Source: a virus (taxonomy: Duplodnaviria > Heunggongvirae > Uroviricota > Caudoviricetes). From it: 11,418 nucleotides of DNA. Shown here in pieces: positions 1-11,418 of the stretch. The position numbers were made by a program, and so were the translations under genes. How positions within the stretch are numbered: the first letter of the stretch is position 1; each line of letters opens with the position of its first letter. The stretch lies in the IMG/VR virus record IMGVR_UViG_2537561605_000006; one strand, written 5' to 3'. The notes beneath the pieces were generated by a model. That model was not told where the DNA came from and searched no databases. It saw only the letters and a program-made list of their open reading frames with translations.

Positions 1-3634
<3,634 letters not shown>

Positions 3635-3654
<20 letters not shown>

Positions 3655-4954
3655 TCTCCCGCATATTGCCAGCATGGCTTTTAATGAGCCGCTGATGCTT
3701 GAACCCGCCTATGCGCGGGTTTTCTTTTGTGCGCTTGCAGGCCAGCTTGGGATCAGCCGCCTGACGGATGCAGTATCCGGCGACAGCCTGACTGCCGGAG
3801 AGGCACCCGCGGCGCTGGCGTTATCCGGTGATGATGACGGACCACGACAGGCCCGGAGTTATCAGGTCATGAACGGCATCGCCGTGCTGCCGGTGTCCGG
3901 TACGCTGGTCAGCCGGACGCGGGCGCTGCAGCCGTATTCGGGAATGACCGGTTACAACGGCATTATCGCCCGTCTGCAACAGGCTGCCAGCGATCCGATG
4001 GTGGACGGCATTCTGCTCGATATGGACACACCGGGCGGGATGGTGGCGGGAGCATTTGACTGTGCTGACATCATCGCCCGTGTGCGAGACATAAAACCGG
4101 TATGGGCGCTGGCCAACGACATGAACTGCAGTGCAGGTCAGCTGCTTGCCAGCGCCGCCTCCCGGCGTCTGGTCACGCAGACCGCCCGGACAGGCTCCAT
4201 CGGCGTCATGATGGCTCACAGTAATTACGGTGCTGCCCTGGAGAAACAGGGCGTGGAAATCACGCTGATTTACAGCGGCAGCCATAAGGTGGATGGCAAC
4301 CCCTACAGCCATCTACCGGGTGATGTCCGGGAAACACTGCAGTCCCGGATGGATGCAACCCGCCGGATGTTTGCGCAGAAGGTGTCGGCATATACCGGCC
4401 TGTCCGTGCAGGCTGTGCTGGATACCGAGGCTGCAGTGTACAGCGGTCAGGAGGCCATTGATGCCGGACTGGCTGATGAACTTGTCAACAGCACCGATGC
4501 GATCACCGTTATGCGTGATGCACTGGATGCACGTAAATCCCGTCTCTCAGGAGGGCGAATGACCAAAGAGACTCAATCAACAACTGTTTCAGCCACTGCT
4601 TCGCAGGCTGACGTTACTGGCGTGGTGCCAGCGACGGAGGGCGAAAACGCCAGCGCGGCGCAGCCGGACGTGAACGCGCAGATCACCGCTGCGGTTGCGG
4701 CAGAAAACAGCCGCATTATGGGGATCCTCAACTGTGAGGAGGCTCACGGACGCGAAGAACAGGCCCGCGTGCTGGCAGAAACCCCCGGTATGACCGTGGA
4801 AACGGCCCGCCGCATTCTGGCCGCAGCACCACAGAGTGCACAGGCGCGCAGTGATACTGCGCTGGATCGTCTGATGCAGGGGGCACCGGCACCGCTGGCT
4901 GCAGGTAACCCGGCATCTGATGCCGTTAACGATTTGCTGAACACACCAGTGTAA
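3635..4954 (+). CDS. C: Head maturation protease / scaffold gpC (S49 ClpP-like serine peptidase family)
   Basis: Same frame as track ORF 3500..4954, but start placed at GTG 3635 (strong SD; 20-bp overlap with the B 3' end as in lambda). Gives 1320 bp, equal to lambda C. Translation VTAELRNLPHIASMAFNEPLMLEP... matches gpC. Confidence 0.9.
4349..4954 (+). CDS. nu3: Scaffolding protein Nu3, in-frame internal start within C sharing the C stop
   Basis: In-frame ATG at 4349 (MDATRRMFAQKVSAYTGLSV...) at the position expected from the lambda C/Nu3 nested arrangement; 606 bp to the shared stop at 4952-4954. Internal initiation cannot be proven from sequence alone. Confidence 0.78.
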   Translation: MDATRRMFAQKVSAYTGLSVQAVLDTEAAVYSGQEAIDAGLADELVNSTDAITVMRDALDARKSRLSGGRMTKETQSTTVSATASQADVTGVVPATEGENASAAQPDVNAQITAAVAAENSRIMGILNCEEAHGREEQARVLAETPGMTVETARRILAAAPQSAQARSDTALDRLMQGAPAPLAAGNPASDAVNDLLNTPV

Positions 4955-4963
4955 GGGATGTTT

Positions 4964-5296
4964 ATGACGAGCAAAGAAACCTTTACCCATTACCAGCCGC
5001 TGGGCAACAGTGACCCGGCTCATACCGCAACCGCGCCCGGCGGATTGAGTGCGAAAGCGCCTGCAATGACCCCGCTGATGCTGGACACCTCCAGCCGTAA
5101 GCTGGTTGCGTGGGATGGCACCACCGACGGTGCTGCCGTTGGCATTCTTGCGGTTGCTGCTGACCAGACCAGCACCACGCTGACGTTCTACAAGTCCGGC
5201 ACGTTCCGTTATGAGGATGTGCTCTGGCCGGAGGCTGCCAGCGACGAGACGAAAAAACGGACCGCGTTTGCCGGAACGGCAATCAGCATCGTTTAA
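4964..5296 (+). CDS. D: Head decoration protein gpD
   Basis: [27 protein letters not shown]...AGTAISIV matches lambda gpD (110 aa). ATG 4964 is preferred over the track's ATG 4958, which sits immediately after AGGG with no spacer whereas 4964 has about 6 nt of spacing. Confidence 0.92.
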
Positions 5297-5313
5297 CCTG
5301 ACCCTTCATCACT

Positions 5314-5337
5314 AAAGGCCGCCTGTGCGGCTTTTTT
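5314..5337 (+). terminator. Intrinsic-terminator-like hairpin in the D-E spacer (GCCGC-CTGT-GCGGC stem-loop followed by TTTTTT)
   Basis: Seen directly: 5-bp GC stem 5318-5322/5327-5331, extendable by A-U/G-U pairs with the flanking AAAG and T-run, and six T at 5332-5337. Function (terminator, attenuator or mRNA-stability element) is inferred. Confidence 0.45.
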
Positions 5338-5350
5338 ACGGGATTTTTTT

Positions 5351-6376
5351 ATGTCGATGTACACAACCGCCCAACTGCTGGCGGCAAATGAGCAGAAATT
5401 TAAGTTTGATCCGCTGTTTCTGCGTCTCTTTTTCCGTGAGAGCTATCCCTTCACCACGGAGAAAGTCTATCTCTCACAAATTCCGGGACTGGTAAACATG
5501 GCGCTGTACGTTTCGCCGATTGTTTCTGGTGAGGTTATCCGTTCCCGTGGCGGCTCCACCTCTGAATTTACGCCGGGATATGTCAAGCCGAAGCATGAAG
5601 TGAATCCGCAGATGCCCCTGCGTCGCCTGCCGGATGAAGATCCGCAGAATCTGGCGGACCCGGCTTACCGCCGCCGTCGCATCATCATGCAGAACATGCG
5701 TGACGAAGAGCTGGCCATTGCTCAGGTCGAAGAGATGCAGGCAGTTTCTGCCGTGCTCAAGGGCAAATACACCATGACCGGTGAAGCCTTCGATCCGGTT
5801 GAGGTGGATATGGGCCGCAGTGCGGCGAACAACATCACGCAGTCCGGCGGCACGGAGTGGAGCAAGCGTGACAAGTCCACGTATGACCCGACCGACGATA
5901 TCGAAGCCTACGCGCTGAACGCCAGCGGCGTGGTGAATATCATCGTGTTTGACCCGAAAGGCTGGGCGCTGTTCCGTTCCTTCAAAGCCGTCAGGGAGAA
6001 GCTGGATACCCGTCGCGGCTCTCATTCCGAACTGGAGACAGCGGTAAAAGACCTGGGCAAAGCGGTGTCTTATAAGGGAATGTATGGCGATGTGGCCATC
6101 GTCGTGTATTCCGGACAGTACGTGGAAAACGGCGTCAAAAAGAACTTCCTGCCGGACAACACGATGGTGCTGGGGAACACTCAGGCACGCGGTCTGCGCA
6201 CCTATGGCTGCATTCAGGATGCGGACGCACAGCGCGAAGGCATTAACGCCTCTGCCCGTTACCCGAAAAACTGGGTGACCACCGGCGATCCGGCGCGTGA
6301 GTTCACCATGATTCAGTCAGCACCGCTGATGCTGCTGGCTGACCCTGATGAGTTCGTGTCCGTACAACTGGCGTAA
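5351..6376 (+). CDS. E: Major capsid protein gpE
   Basis: 341-aa ORF MSMYTTAQLLAANEQKFKFDPLFLRLFFRESYPFTTEKVY...FVSVQLA matches lambda gpE in sequence and length. Confidence 0.96.
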   Translation: MSMYTTAQLLAANEQKFKFDPLFLRLFFRESYPFTTEKVYLSQIPGLVNMALYVSPIVSGEVIRSRGGSTSEFTPGYVKPKHEVNPQMPLRRLPDEDPQNLADPAYRRRRIIMQNMRDEELAIAQVEEMQAVSAVLKGKYTMTGEAFDPVEVDMGRSAANNITQSGGTEWSKRDKSTYDPTDDIEAYALNASGVVNIIVFDPKGWALFRSFKAVREKLDTRRGSHSELETAVKDLGKAVSYKGMYGDVAIVVYSGQYVENGVKKNFLPDNTMVLGNTQARGLRTYGCIQDADAQREGINASARYPKNWVTTGDPAREFTMIQSAPLMLLADPDEFVSVQLA

Positions 6377-6378
6377 TC

Positions 6379-6403
6379 ATGGCCCTTCGGGGCCATTGTT
6401 TTT
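6379..6403 (+). terminator. Hairpin with UUCG tetraloop plus T-run immediately after E (ATGGCCC-TTCG-GGGCCAT then TGTTTTT)
   Basis: Seen directly: perfect 7-bp stem 6379-6385/6390-6396 with a TTCG loop, followed by TGTTTTT at 6397-6403; begins 3 nt after the E stop codon. Function inferred. Confidence 0.45.
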
Positions 6404-6417
6404 CTGTGGAGGAGTCC

Positions 6418-6816
6418 ATGACGAAAGATGAACTGATTGCCCGTCTCCGCTCGCTGGGTGAACAACTGAACCGTGATGTCAGCCTGACGGGGACGAAAGA
6501 AGAACTGGCGCTCCGTGTGGCAGAGCTGGAAGAGGAGCTTGATGACACGGATGAAACTGCCGGTCAGGACACCCCTCTCAGCCGGGAAAATGTGCTGACC
6601 GGACATGAAAATGAGGTGGGATCAGCGCAGCCGGATACCGTGATTCTGGATACGTCTGAACTGGTCACGGTCGTGGCACTGGTGAAGCTGCATACTGATG
6701 CACTTCACGTCACGCGGGATGAACCTGTGGCATTTGTGCTGCCGGGAACGGCGTTTCGTGTCTCTGCCGGTGTGGCAGCCGAAATGACAGAGCGCGGCCT
6801 GGCCAGAATGCAATAA
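6418..6816 (+). CDS. FI: DNA packaging / head assembly protein gpFI
   Basis: MTKDELIARLRSLGEQLNRDVSLTGTKEELALRVAELEEELDD...ERGLARMQ matches lambda gpFI (132 aa). ATG 6418 is preceded by GGAGG at 6408-6412. The track's upstream start at 6379 would overlap the hairpin and is rejected. Confidence 0.9.
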   Translation: MTKDELIARLRSLGEQLNRDVSLTGTKEELALRVAELEEELDDTDETAGQDTPLSRENVLTGHENEVGSAQPDTVILDTSELVTVVALVKLHTDALHVTRDEPVAFVLPGTAFRVSAGVAAEMTERGLARMQ

Positions 6817-6827
6817 CGGGAGGCGCT

Positions 6828-7181
6828 GTGGCTGATTTCGATAACCTGTTCGATGCTGCCATTGCCCGCGCCGATGAAACGATACGCGGGTACATGGGAA
6901 CGTCAGCCACCATGACATCCGGTGAGCAGTCCGGCGCAGTAATACGTGGTGTTTTTGATGACCCTGAAAATATCAGCTATGCCGGACAGGGCGTGCGTGT
7001 TGAAGGCTCCAGCCCGTCCCTGTTTGTCCGGACTGATGATGTGCGGCAACTGCGGCGTGGAGACACGCTGACCATCGGTGAGGAAAACTTCTGGATAGAC
7101 CGGATTTCGACGGATGATGGCGGAAGCTGTCATCTCTGGCTTGGGCGGGGCGTACCGCCTGCCGTTAACCGTCGTCGCTGA
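6828..7181 (+). CDS. FII: Head-tail connector protein gpFII
   Basis: 117-aa ORF starting at GTG 6828 (MADFDNLFDAAIARADETIRGYMG...), preceded by GGGAGG at 6818-6823; length and sequence match lambda gpFII. Confidence 0.9.
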   Translation: MADFDNLFDAAIARADETIRGYMGTSATMTSGEQSGAVIRGVFDDPENISYAGQGVRVEGSSPSLFVRTDDVRQLRRGDTLTIGEENFWIDRISTDDGGSCHLWLGRGVPPAVNRRR

Positions 7182-7192
7182 AGGGGGGATGT

Positions 7193-7771
7193 ATGGCCAT
7201 AAAAGGTCTTGAGCAGGCCGTTGAAAACCTCAGTCGTATCAGCAAAACGGCGGTGCCTGGTGCGTCAGCAATGGCCATTAACCGCGTTGCTTCATCCGCG
7301 ATATCGCAGTCGGCGTCACAGGTTGCCCGTGAGACAAGGGTACGCCGGAAACTGGTAAAGGAAAGGGCCAGGCTGAAAAGGGCCACGGTTAAAAATCCGC
7401 AGGCCAGAATCAAGGTTAACCGGGGGGATTTGCCCGTAATCAAGCTGGGTAACGCGCGGGTTGTCCTGTCCCGACGCAGGCGTCGTAAAAAGGGGCAGCG
7501 TTCATCCCTGAAAGGTGGCGGCAGCGTGCTTGTGGTGGGAAACCGTCGTATTCCCGGCGCGTTTATTCAGCAACTGAAAAATGGCCGGTGGCATGTCATG
7601 CAGCGTGTGGCCGGGAAAAACCGTTACCCCATTGATGTGGTGAAAATCCCGATGGCGGTGCCGCTGACCACGGCGTTTAAACAGAATATTGAGCGGATAC
7701 GGCGTGAACGTCTTCCGAAAGAGCTGGGCTATGCGCTGCAGCATCAACTGAGAATGGTAATAAAGCGATGA
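7193..7771 (+). CDS. Z: Tail assembly / tail completion protein gpZ
   Basis: 192-aa ORF MAIKGLEQAVENLSRISKTAVPGASAMAINRVASS... matches lambda gpZ. The 3' end overlaps the U start (ATGA at 7768-7771). Confidence 0.9.
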   Translation: MAIKGLEQAVENLSRISKTAVPGASAMAINRVASSAISQSASQVARETRVRRKLVKERARLKRATVKNPQARIKVNRGDLPVIKLGNARVVLSRRRRRKKGQRSSLKGGGSVLVVGNRRIPGAFIQQLKNGRWHVMQRVAGKNRYPIDVVKIPMAVPLTTAFKQNIERIRRERLPKELGYALQHQLRMVIKR

Positions 7772-8163
7772 AACATACTGAACTCCGTGCAGCCGTACTG
7801 GATGCACTGGAGAAGCATGACACCGGGGCGACGTTTTTTGATGGTCGCCCCGCTGTTTTTGATGAGGCGGATTTTCCGGCAGTTGCCGTTTATCTCACCG
7901 GCGCTGAATACACGGGCGAAGAGCTGGACAGCGATACCTGGCAGGCGGAGCTGCATATCGAAGTTTTCCTGCCTGCTCAGGTGCCGGATTCAGAGCTGGA
8001 TGCGTGGATGGAGTCCCGGATTTATCCGGTGATGAGCGATATCCCGGCACTATCAGATTTGATCACCAGTATGGTGGCCAGTGGCTATGACTACCGGCGC
8101 GACGATGATGCGGGCCTGTGGAGTTCAGCCGATCTGACTTATGTCATTACCTATGAAATGTGA
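7768..8163 (+). CDS. U: Tail terminator protein gpU
   Basis: 131-aa [57 protein letters not shown]... matches lambda gpU. Confidence 0.92.
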
Positions 8164-8170
8164 GGACGAT

Positions 8171-8911
8171 ATGCCAACACCAAATCCTCTGGCACCGGTG
8201 AAAGGGGCCGGGACCACACTGTGGGTTTATAACGGGAACGGCGACCCATATGCAAACCCGCTTTCAGACAATGACTGGTCGCGTCTGGCAAAGGTTAAAG
8301 ACCTGACGCCCGGCGAACTGACCGCTGAGTCCTATGACGACAGTTATCTCGATGATGAAGATGCGGACTGGGCCGCGACCGGACAGGGGCAGAAATCCGC
8401 TGGAGATACCAGCTTCACGCTGGCGTGGATGCCCGGAGAGCAGGGGCAGCAGGCGCTGCTGGCGTGGTTTAATGAAGGTGATACCCGTGCCTATAAAATC
8501 CGCTTCCCGAACGGCACGGTCGATGTGTTCCGCGGCTGGGTCAGCAGTATCGGTAAGGCGGTGACGGCGAAGGAAGTGATCACCCGCACGGTGAAAGTCA
8601 CCAACGTGGGACGTCCGTCGATGGCAGAAGATCGCAGCACGGTAACAGCGGCAACCGGCATGACCGTGACGCCTGCCAGCACCTCGGTGGTGAAAGGGCA
8701 GAGCACGACGCTGACCGTGGCATTCCAGCCGGAAGGCGCAACCGACAAGAGCTTCCGTGCGGTGTCTGCGGATAAAACAAAAGCCACCGTGTCGGTCAGT
8801 GGTATGACCATCACCGTGAAAGGTGTTGCTGCAGGCAAGGTCAACATTCCGGTCGTATCCGGTAATGGTGAGTTTGCTGCGGTTGCAGAAATCAACGTCA
8901 CCGCCAGTTAA
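8171..8911 (+). CDS. V: Major tail tube protein gpV, including the C-terminal Ig-like (Big_2-type) domain
   Basis: [20 protein letters not shown]...[14 protein letters not shown], 246 aa, the same length as lambda gpV. Start taken at ATG 8171 (GAGGA 4 nt upstream) rather than the track's in-frame ATG 8141, which lies inside U. Confidence 0.92.
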
Positions 8912-8926
8912 TCCGGAGAATCAGCG

Positions 8927-9349
8927 ATGTTCCTGAAAACCGAATCATTTGAACATAACGGCGTGACCGTCACGCTTTCTGAACTGTCAGCCCTGCAGCG
9001 TATTGAGCATCTCGCCCTGATGAAACGGCAGGCAGAACAGGCGGAGTCAGACAGCAACCGGAAGTTTACTGTGGAAGACGCCATCAGAACCGGCGCTTTT
9101 GTGGTGGCGATGTCCCTGTGGCATAACCATCCGAAGAAGACGCAGATGCCGTCCATGAATGAAGCCGTTAAACAGATTGAGCAGGAAGTGCTTACCACCT
9201 GGCCCGCGGAGGCAATTTCTCATGCTGAAAACGTGGTGTACCGGCTGTCCGGTATGTATGAGTTTGTGGTGAATGATGCCCCTGAACAGGCAGAGGACGC
9301 CGGGCCTGCAGAGCCTGTTTCTGCGGGAAAGTGTTCGACGGTGAGCTGA
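8927..9349 (+). CDS. G: Tail assembly chaperone gpG
   Basis: 140-aa ORF MFLKTESFEHNGVTVTLSELSALQRIEHLALMKRQAEQAESD...SAGKCSTVS matches lambda gpG; contains the slippery heptamer near its 3' end. Confidence 0.92.
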   Translation: MFLKTESFEHNGVTVTLSELSALQRIEHLALMKRQAEQAESDSNRKFTVEDAIRTGAFVVAMSLWHNHPKKTQMPSMNEAVKQIEQEVLTTWPAEAISHAENVVYRLSGMYEFVVNDAPEQAEDAGPAEPVSAGKCSTVS

Positions 9350-9765
9350 GTTTTGCCCTGAAACTGGCGCGCGAGATGGGGCGACCCGACTGGCGTGCCA
9401 TGCTTGCCGGGATGTCATCCACGGAGTATGCCGACTGGCACCGCTTTTACAGTACCCATTATTTTCATGATGTTCTGCTGGATATGCACTTTTCCGGGCT
9501 GACGTACACCGTGCTCAGCCTGTTTTTCAGCGATCCGGATATGCATCCGCTGGATTTCAGTCTGCTGAACCGGCGTGAGGCTGACGAAGAGCCTGAAGAT
9601 GATGTGCTGATGCAGAAAGCGGCAGGGCTTGCTGGAGGCGTTCGTTTTGGCCCGGACGGGAATGAAGTTATCCCCGCTTCCCCGGATGTGGCGGACATGA
9701 CGGAGGATGACGTAATGCTGATGACAGTATCAGAAGGGATCGCAGGAGGAGTCCGGTATGGCTGA
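8927..9765 (+). CDS. T: Tail assembly chaperone gpGT, the G-T fusion made by -1 frameshifting at 9325-9331
   Basis: The -1 frame after the heptamer encodes ...VFDGELSFALKLAREMGRPDWRAMLAGMSSTEYADWHRFYSTHYFHDVLLD...GIAGGVRYG (track ORF 9331..9765), recognisable as the lambda T region. It ends 8 bp into H. Confidence 0.85.
9325..9331 (+). promoter_or_regulatory. Programmed -1 ribosomal frameshift slippery heptamer G GGA AAG (G to G-T)
   Basis: GGGAAAG at 9325-9331 is in the X XXY YYZ register of the G frame (codons GCG GGA AAG). The -1 frame is open from 9331 to the stop at 9763-9765. Same motif and position as the lambda G/T frameshift. Confidence 0.85.
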
Positions 9766-11290
9766 ACCGGTAGGCGATCTGGTCGTTGATTTAAGTCTGG
9801 ATGCGGCCAGATTTGACGAGCAGATGGCCAGAGTCAGGCGTCATTTTTCCGGTACGGAAAGTGATGCGAAAAAAACAGCGGCAGTCGTTGAACAGTCGAT
9901 GAGCCGGCAGGCGCTGGCTGCACAGAAAGCGGGAATTTCCGTCGGGCAGTATAAAGCCGCCATGCGTATGCTGCCTGCGCAGTTCACTGACGTGGCCACG
10001 CAGCTTGCAGGTGGGCAAAGTCCGTGGCTGATCCTGCTGCAACAGGGGGGGCAGGTGAAGGACTCCTTCGGCGGGATGATCCCCATGTTCCGGGGGCTTG
10101 CCGGTGCGATCACCCTGCCGATGGTGGGGGCCACCTCGCTGGCGGTGGCGACCGGTGCGCTGGCGTATGCCTGGTATCAGGGCAACTCAACCCTGTCCGA
10201 TTTCAACAAAACGCTGGTCCTTTCCGGCAATCAGGCCGGGCTGACGGCAGATCGTATGCTGGTCCTGTCCAGAGCCGGGCAGGCGGCAGGGCTGACGTTT
10301 AACCAGACCAGCGAGTCACTCAGCGCACTGGTTAAGGCGGGGGTAAGCGGTGAGGCTCAGATTGCGTCCATCAGCCAGAGTGTGGCGCGTTTCTCCTCTG
10401 CATCAGGCGTGGAGGTGGACAAGGTCGCTGAAGCCTTCGGGAAGCTGACCACTGACCCGACGTCGGGGCTGACAGCGATGGCGCGCCAGTTCCATAACGT
10501 GACGGCGGAGCAGATTGCGTATGTTGCTCAGTTGCAGCGTTCCGGCGAAGAAGCCGGGGCATTGCAGGCGGCGAACGAGGCCGCGACGAAAGGGTTTGAT
10601 GACCAGACCCGCCGCCTGAAAGAGAACATGGGCACGCTGGAAACCTGGGCAGACAGGACAGCACGGGCATTCAAATCCATGTGGGATGCGGTGCTGGATA
10701 TTGGTCGTCCTGATACCGCGCAGGAGATGCTGATTAAGGCAGAGGCCGCGTTTAAGAAAGCGGACGATATCTGGAATCTGCGCAAGGATGATTATTTTGT
10801 TAACGATGAAGCGCGGGCGCGTTACTGGGATGATCGTGAAAAGGCCCGTCTTGCGCTTGAAGCCGCCCGAAAGAAGGCTGAGCAGCAGAGTCAACAGGAC
10901 AAAAATGCGCAGCAACAGAGCGATACCGAAGCGTCACGGCTGAAATATACCGAAGAGGCGCAGAAGGCTTACGAACGCCTGCAGACGCCGCTGGAGAAAT
11001 ATACCGCCCGTCAGGAAGAACTGAATAAGGCACTGAAAGACGGGAAAATCCTGCAGGCAGATTACAACACGCTGATGGCGGCGGCGAAAAAGGACTATGA
11101 AGCGACGCTGAAAAAGCCGAAACAGTCCGGCGTGAAGGTGTCTGCGGGCGATCGTCAGGAAGACAGTGCTCATGCTGCCCTGCTGACGCTTCAGGCAGAA
11201 CTCCGGATGCTGGAGAAGCATGCCGGAGCGAATGAGAAAATCAGCCAGCAGCGCCGGGATTTGAACCGCCCCGGAAATCCTGGAGACTAA
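9758..11290 (+). CDS. H: Tail tape measure protein gpH, N-terminal ~502 codons only; disrupted by IS insertion at ~11262 (likely pseudogene in its current state). The final 8 codons (NRPGNPGD-stop) are read from IS sequence
   Basis: [39 protein letters not shown]... matches the lambda gpH N-terminus. ATG 9758 overlaps the T stop. Lambda gpH is about 853 aa; here H-derived sequence stops at ...[10 protein letters not shown], where the IS3-family inverted repeat begins. Confidence 0.85.
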
Positions 11291-11418
11291 ACTCCCTGAG
11301 AAAGAGGTAAACAGGATGACTAAAAATACTCGTTTTTCCCCCGAAGTCCGTCAGCGGGCGATTCGTATGGTTCTGGAAAGTCAGGATGAATATGACTCAC
11401 AGTGGGCGGCAATTTGTT
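11262..11418 (+). mobile_element. IS3-family insertion sequence, IS629/IS1203/IS3411-like, left end (IRL plus start of orfA); element continues beyond the window
   Basis: Sequence from 11262 (TGAACCGCCCCGGAAATCCTGGAGACTAAACTCCCTGAGAAAGAGGTAAACAGG ATG...) has the terminal TG and the organisation of an IS629-type left inverted repeat followed by orfA. H homology ends abruptly at this point. Junction position uncertain by about 2 bp. Confidence 0.8.
11316..11418 (+). CDS. IS3-family transposase OrfA (helix-turn-helix N-terminal part), 3'-partial at window edge
   Basis: ATG 11316 preceded by AAAGAGG (11301-11307); translation [34 protein letters not shown] is recognisably the N-terminus of IS629-group OrfA. 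Not in the ORF track because no stop lies within the window. Confidence 0.8.

Follow-up and report, generated by a model that had tools for sequence, protein, structure and literature searches.

Why does the lambda-like prophage recorded as IMGVR_UViG_2537561605_000006 encode a tape-measure protein of only 510 aa? The stretch analysed here (11,418 nt; the window) is the whole of a draft contig, AOEH01000045.1 (11418 bp), from assembly GCA_000335055.2 of Escherichia coli ATCC 700728. It starts inside a terminase large-subunit gene and ends 157 nt into an insertion sequence (IS) of about 17 copies. Near that end lies gene H, the orthologue of the lambda tape-measure protein gpH, which we found to be interrupted by this IS, an IS3-family element of the IS629/IS1203 isoform group. 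We consider it almost certain that the insertion split the H gene of an Sp8-like prophage at the icd site, which would leave the tail module null for H in a prophage that was already crippled.

An IS629/IS1203-group insertion in codon 502 of H

The gpH orthologue is read as a chimeric open reading frame (ORF) at 9758..11290 (+ strand), whose 510 aa comprise 502 H codons and 8 IS-derived codons, followed by a stop (IS-derived tail NRPGNPGD*). The part that belongs to H, an N-terminal pseudogene fragment at 9758..11261 (+), holds codons 1-501 and the first base of codon 502. Codon 502 itself is T/TG across the junction; as the first two bases of the IS are TG, it still specifies the original Leu. 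ELV72412.1 (E. coli ATCC 700728) and STF23158.1 are existing protein entries with exactly the chimeric sequence. An earlier interpretation of this DNA made from its letters alone (the sequence-only reading) had described the ORF as 502 H plus 8 IS codons, and its coordinates, arithmetic and quoted sequences all agree with the translation.

The Pfam domain TMP_2 was detected in the N-terminal part (residues 54-256, 236.7 bits), which RefSeq labels 'tape measure family protein, incomplete, missing C-terminus'. The second domain, Tape_meas_lam_C, falls on the detached C-terminal fragment of about 347 codons. Only positions 2-32 of TIGR01541, a 332-position model of the conserved C-terminal domain, align to the chimera (residues 472-502), which puts the insertion right where that domain begins. 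No single uninterrupted frame holds both termini. With the H frame broken at codon 502 and the C-terminal 347 residues detached, the gene is a pseudogene of the gpH family and not a functional member.

The IS left end starts at 11262 (TGAACCGCCCCGG...), and the window contains the first 157 nt of the element (11262..11418, + strand) up to the contig end. When the 164 nt from 11255-11418 were used as a query, we obtained matches at 23,644 places in 5,826 E. coli records, and in 3,613 of 5,426 complete genomes. These matches, far beyond chance, were annotated 'IS3-like element IS1203 family transposase', with at least 99% identity in 1,197 records. The left terminal inverted repeat, TGAACCGCCCCGGAAATCCTGGAGA, occupies 11262..11286 (+) and pairs with the right end of the complete element in E. 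coli NZRM3614 (NZ_CP032793.1; locus L001, 7293-7317). The orfA ATG lies at 11316, leaving the first 34 of 108 transposase codons in the window (11316..11418, +).

The orfA and orfB tests were run on the NZRM3614 copy, with which the window shares all 6164 overlapping bases (5255..11418; 0/6164 mismatches), including the 34 orfA codons. There the full element is 1310 bp (L001 6008-7317), with ends TGAACCGCCCCGG... and ...CCGGGGCGGTTCA (TG...CA); the first 13 nt pair perfectly and 22/25 nt match. Full-length OrfA (108 aa) matches Pfam HTH_Tnp_1 as well as NF033516, a model of IS3 family transposases. OrfB (296 aa) matches rve (96.9 bits), rve_2, rve_3 and HTH_21, and, at 316 bits, exceeds the NF033516 cut-off of 160. 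The two genes, orfB being in the -1 frame, overlap at an A-rich slippery stretch (...AAAAAATGA), and the Rfam ALIL frameshift pseudoknot (RF01497) was found in the full element at 121.5 bits. The transposase of the H-inserted IS is annotated as intact with a programmed frameshift.

The IS629-type left inverted repeat and orfA start that the sequence-only reading had placed from 11262 are thus borne out by the E. coli matches and the profile models, and a comparison of 11262-11418 with IS3-family elements, which it had proposed as a check, returned an IS629/IS1203 left end (E. coli records, NF033516). IS3-family elements use a copy-out-paste-in route for their transposition. The full 1310 bp are 100% identical to a copy in O111:H- strain 11128 that RefSeq labels 'IS1203 family'. 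Matches to annotated copies leave both the choice between IS629 and IS1203 and the sub-type (I, II or III) unsettled, and 'IS629/IS1203 isoform group' is the safe name. IS1203 has been described as an isoform of IS629, which makes 3-4 bp duplications and has 62% of its copies in prophages or prophage-like elements (Rump et al., PMC3271280).

The left copy of the target-site duplication, ATT, lies at 11259..11261; the right copy is outside the window and was seen in other assemblies. Loci L001 (NZRM3614), L005 and L006 all read ...GGGATT, then the IS, then ATTTGTGG..., and the flanks in NZRM3614 are ...CGCCGGGATT on the left and ATTTGTGGAAGGCAGAAAGTCAGTTCGCGGTACTGGAGGAG... on the right, with ATT on both sides. 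After the IS, the H frame resumes as ...LWKAESQFAVLEE (L-W-K-A-E-S-Q-F-A-V-L-E-E). AC-3 and a 787-kb contig of GCA_900448275.1 carry the same 1310-bp element base for base with the same junctions. Three finished genomes, NZRM3614, AC-3 and AC-5, match at 100% including the H flank, annotated 'tape measure ...' followed by 'IS1203 family transposase'. The right inverted repeat, the duplication and the resumed frame, which the sequence-only reading had expected beyond the window, are accordingly all present in NZRM3614, AC-3 and GCA_900448275.1, and both the duplication (ATT) and the downstream peptide (WKAESQFAVLEE) were predicted exactly. The two junctions also share a 5-bp direct repeat, ATTTG (11259..11263; L001 7318-7322): TG, with which the IS starts, is also what follows in the H target, and it thereby lengthens the ATT duplication.

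These data bear on whether the sequence after 11262 could instead be a naturally divergent H C-terminus. The window, which ends before the right junction, could by itself accommodate such a variant, but 11262-11418 matches IS1203-family copies at 99% or more and the ORF stops after 8 codons. Moreover, genomes with the identical junction contain the full IS, its inverted repeats, the duplication and the resumed H, and the empty site exists elsewhere. Uninterrupted continuation of H downstream, the outcome that the sequence-only reading had set against its own proposal, is excluded: the IS comes first, and H resumes after ATT. We regard a divergent C-terminus as vanishingly improbable and as refuted by the IS matches, the full element with its right junction, and the empty-site alleles.

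An assembly artefact, in which a short-read contig was misjoined to a repeat, is extremely improbable. It would fit a draft contig that ends inside a repeat of about 17 copies and whose other end has 12-13 base differences within 89..2742, suggesting collapsed paralogues. However, the junction, the whole IS and the right junction with its ATT recur in NZRM3614, AC-3, AC-5 and the 787-kb contig, and 2743..11418 of the window is identical to NZRM3614.

We therefore favour the insertion, and nothing contradicts the insertion itself. In the sequence of events that we propose, a 1310-bp element of the IS629/IS1203 group transposed into codon 502 of the gpH gene of an Sp8-like prophage in the stx-negative O157:H7 lineage ATCC 700728 / NZRM3614. 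The event duplicated ATT and left the 849-codon H in two parts, the 510-aa chimera and a detached piece of some 347 codons.

The ancestral allele and the reach of the junction

Excising the IS together with one ATT from the NZRM3614 sequence produced an 849-aa ORF. The H gene reconstructed in this way is the same as the intact gene of O157:H7 strain 9234 (0/2550 nt differ), and its protein is 96.2% identical to lambda gpH over the full length (J02459.1 10542-13100). The uninterrupted site, GGGATTTGTGG, is present in intact H genes. A reconstructed 600-bp empty site was found at 100% identity in many O157:H7 genomes, where it is annotated as an intact 'phage tail tape measure protein', and at 99% or more in 317 records. 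As the flanks are identical to those of intact alleles, the insertion is recent and lineage-specific.

Lambda gpH (853 aa) has the same TMP_2 and Tape_meas_lam_C domains and the same operon position as the reconstructed gene. It differs in that the ancestral allele here encodes 849 and not 853 aa and is interrupted in ATCC 700728, so that the gene is a pseudogene; the figure of about 853 aa that the sequence-only reading gave for intact gpH is right for lambda but not for the intact orthologue at this locus. H is placed after G/T and before M-L-K-I-J, as in the lambda tail operon. Upstream of it, a G-T -1 frameshift heptamer, GGGAAAG, lies at 9325-9331, at the end of the G ORF (8927..9349) and overlapping the T frame (9331..9765), and the lambda-type tail chaperone G/GT arrangement looks conserved from these positions.

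The exact chimeric protein was found in two contigs, AOEH01000045.1 (GCA_000335055.2) and UFZH01000003.1 (GCA_900448275.1). Among the 40 of 48 matches listed, the contiguous H-IS junction occurred in 3 of 5,426 complete genomes; the other 37 listed matches to H plus IS were in two pieces, all but one of them spanning 1,128 bp. The 44-nt left junction did not turn up in a scan of metagenome contigs. ATCC 700728, NCTC 12900 and NZRM 3614 are presumably one and the same stx-negative O157:H7 isolate from Austria under three collection names, which would fit the 'Austria' field of the NZRM3614 record. We found no paper describing the H codon 502 insertion in the literature on IS629 with tape measure, nor a relevant paper on an NCTC 12900 genome, and a report on closed stx-negative O157 genomes makes no mention of NZRM3614, NCTC 12900, ATCC 700728 or icd (PMC7175801).

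From this distribution, the insertion looks confined to one strain lineage. The general strain-typing value that the sequence-only reading attached to such insertions is accordingly narrowed to a possible marker: the lineage-specific junction …CGCCGGGATT/TGAACCGCCCCGG… could serve as a polymerase chain reaction (PCR) or in-silico marker for ATCC 700728 / NZRM3614-type strains. The element has much in common with known insertions of IS629/IS1203 (IS3 family, IS3 group) in O157:H7 prophages, namely the 1310 bp, the TG...CA repeats, the -1 frameshift with ALIL, the 3-bp duplication and the prophage location. It differs from them in the site itself, H codon 502, which is seen in the 3 listed complete genomes and two ATCC 700728 / NCTC assemblies.

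The insertion also explains where the ATCC 700728 contig ends. The window stops 157 nt into the IS because the short-read assembly could not bridge a 17-copy repeat, and both window ends are repeat-induced assembly breaks. At the other end, 89..2742 (terminase/portal) has 13 base differences from NZRM3614 and 12 from AC-3, with none in 2743..11418. Seven window bases (89, 299, 440, 443, 938, 2739 and 2742) also differ from strain 9234. This pattern points either to collapsed paralogues that left consensus errors in the short-read draft, or to gene conversion between sibling prophages of the lambdoid group.

State of the prophage and consequence for the tail

The lambda-like prophage adjoins icd in NZRM3614, and icd is the integration site of the Sakai prophage Sp8 (PMC8190617). 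Both NZRM3614 and strain 9234, whose H is intact, have directly next to xis an O gene whose alignment to lambda O begins only at residue 48 (L003 7905-8833 in strain 9234, and the same in NZRM3614); its first 47 or so codons are gone, and PGAP calls it a pseudogene. The xis-to-O interval of these two strains contained no cI, cro, N, cII, exo/bet/gam or pR/pL. In Sakai, Sp8 has no repressor, antirepressor or recombination genes and is not excised, circularised, replicated or packaged, although it is among the only three lambdoid prophages of that strain whose morphogenesis genes are all present (Asadulghani et al., PMC2669165).

Integration at icd combined with the lack of an immunity and recombination region was thus found here as in Sp8. 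Further features in common are the missing antirepressor, a complete head and tail module in lambda order, and DLP12-like cargo (emrE, rusA, bor, lom). The likeness is one of site and gene content, and whereas Sp8 is scored in Sakai as complete for morphogenesis, H is disrupted here. In the surrounding region of NZRM3614 (NZ_CP032793.1 2992001-3042000), the DLP12-like cargo or moron genes comprise emrE, a ybcK-type recombinase, rusA, bor and lom. Beyond the tail-fibre genes of this strain, we observed genes for a manganese catalase, a ferritin-like protein and general stress functions, in a block ending at ISEc8.

Lambda genetics has established that H is essential for tails. This favours a reading in which the IS insertion was the primary lesion that turned a functional, inducible prophage cryptic, as does the fact that, H apart, the head and tail genes of the window and of the sequence downstream are all annotated as intact; in Sakai, likewise, the Sp8 morphogenesis set is complete (PMC2669165). 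However, strain 9234, with its intact H, is already without repressor, cro, N, cII and recombination genes, and its O lacks about 47 N-terminal codons; Sp8 in Sakai, too, is without circularisation, replication and packaging (PMC2669165). A primary lesion in H is therefore improbable. Because a strain with intact H has already lost the early region, the IS did not make the prophage cryptic; its effect was to remove H from a head-tail module that, though complete in other respects, was stranded before. On the proposed course of events, the insertion would have struck a prophage already made non-inducible by a xis-to-O deletion.

Residues 818-842 of gpH sit in the lumen of the lambda tail tip (PMC10721106). 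Judged by its domain content, the truncation removes the whole conserved C-terminal domain, including the tip-lumen helix held by gpI. Having lost the helix-bearing domain, the chimera should be unable to nucleate or anchor tail-tube polymerisation: it keeps the N-terminal TMP_2 region but lacks the part that anchors gpH in the tip, and thus should not join the tip complex from which the tube polymerises, leaving the tail module null for H. Polarity on the genes downstream of the IS may add to this effect. The description 'tail-defective (cryptic)' in the sequence-only reading would thus apply in its first part, through loss of the C-terminal domain, but the IS is not the cause of the cryptic state.

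A truncated or split H might still work, either as a shorter ruler that sets short tails or through the 510-aa chimera together with a 348-aa product initiated at a TTG in the right junction. A gene caller does predict a 348-aa ORF starting there (L006 5817-6863), and Katsura and Hendrix are said to have obtained shorter tails from in-frame internal deletions of lambda H. In the viable lambda deletions, however, a single chain still carries both termini; here a break sets the tip-anchored C-terminal helix apart from the N-terminal part, and no obvious ribosome-binding site lies upstream of the TTG in the right-junction sequence. A working split H is accordingly very improbable.

Some points qualify this explanation. 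The right junction lies outside the window, and all that is known of it comes from other assemblies, apparently of the same lineage. In NZRM3614, the query 11255-11418 hit 17 places and the H plus IS query 19, counts that imply about two more H-like loci; supply of gpH in trans or recombinational repair is therefore conceivable. In addition, PMC2669165 scores the replication genes of Sp8 as '+', unlike PGAP and the O alignment, so that the deadness of the prophage before the insertion is not fully settled.

Reversibility and the fate of O157 tail modules

Precise excision of IS1203v/IS629 in O157:H7 occurs at about 1e5-fold the K-12 level and needs an active transposase together with the IS-excision enhancer, IEE (bioRxiv 10.1101/2023.06.07.543989). 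IEE, 786 aa long, combines an N-terminal AEP primase-polymerase domain with a C-terminal SF2 helicase domain and, in vitro, joins ends that share at least 4 bp of homology (PMC9943667). In NZRM3614 we identified WP_000233452.1, likewise of 786 aa, in which an AEP-TOTE domain (residues 49-277, 329 bits) is followed by ResIII/DEAD/Helicase_C (423-738); its PGAP name is 'TOTE conflict system archaeo-eukaryotic primase domain-containing protein'. Its gene (NZ_CP032793.1 3210298-3212658; L008 15298-17658) is part of an SpLE1-like island, with the urease cluster and an integrase as neighbours. The protein corresponds to published IEE in its size, its domain arrangement and where its gene lies, and we refer to it as IEE-like.

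Given an intact transposase, an IEE-like protein, 17 IS copies and the shared ATTTG, precise excision is plausible. The proviso in the sequence-only reading, that the prophage is defective unless the IS excises precisely, would thus be mechanistically realistic in this host, in view of the IEE-like protein and of published excision. A bolder proposal is that the insertion is a reversible off-switch and not terminal decay, the 5-bp ATTTG meeting the microhomology of at least 4 bp that IEE uses (PMC9943667); we consider this improbable. If it were true, rare precise excision would bring back, without a single base changed, a tail module of which the O157 pool has only three complete lambdoid examples; defective prophages nearby could then again be packaged or mobilised.

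What looks like a later stage of IS-driven decay is seen in O111:H- strain 11128 (NC_013364.1 612380-620507). There the 100% identical IS (L004 4472-5781) truncates a closely related H of a related prophage after 2133 nt, at an insertion point different from codon 502. No flanking duplication is present, and all downstream tail genes, from M to tfa, are missing. The IS abuts methyltransferase, partial tfa and hydrolase genes, which are markers of the prophage right end in O157. The two-piece H plus IS match of 11128 recurs in at least 36 further genomes, most of them O111. From this arrangement, the gene seems to have been hit independently in 11128, with an IS-adjacent deletion afterwards, and such a deletion of the remaining tail genes is the likely next step of IS-driven decay.

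IS629 insertions in O157 prophage genes are well documented, and the one described here is of an ordinary, already known kind; RefSeq already annotates the two pseudogene fragments that flank the IS. The value of the finding is mostly practical, in a possible strain marker and in a caveat for annotation: the 510-aa 'tape measure family protein' of the ATCC 700728 draft is a chimeric pseudogene product and not a natural short variant. For the biology of these strains, the insertion opens no new question but adds one more example of the IS629-driven erosion of the O157 prophage pool, its practical effect probably being that this pool, with few complete tail modules, has lost one of them.

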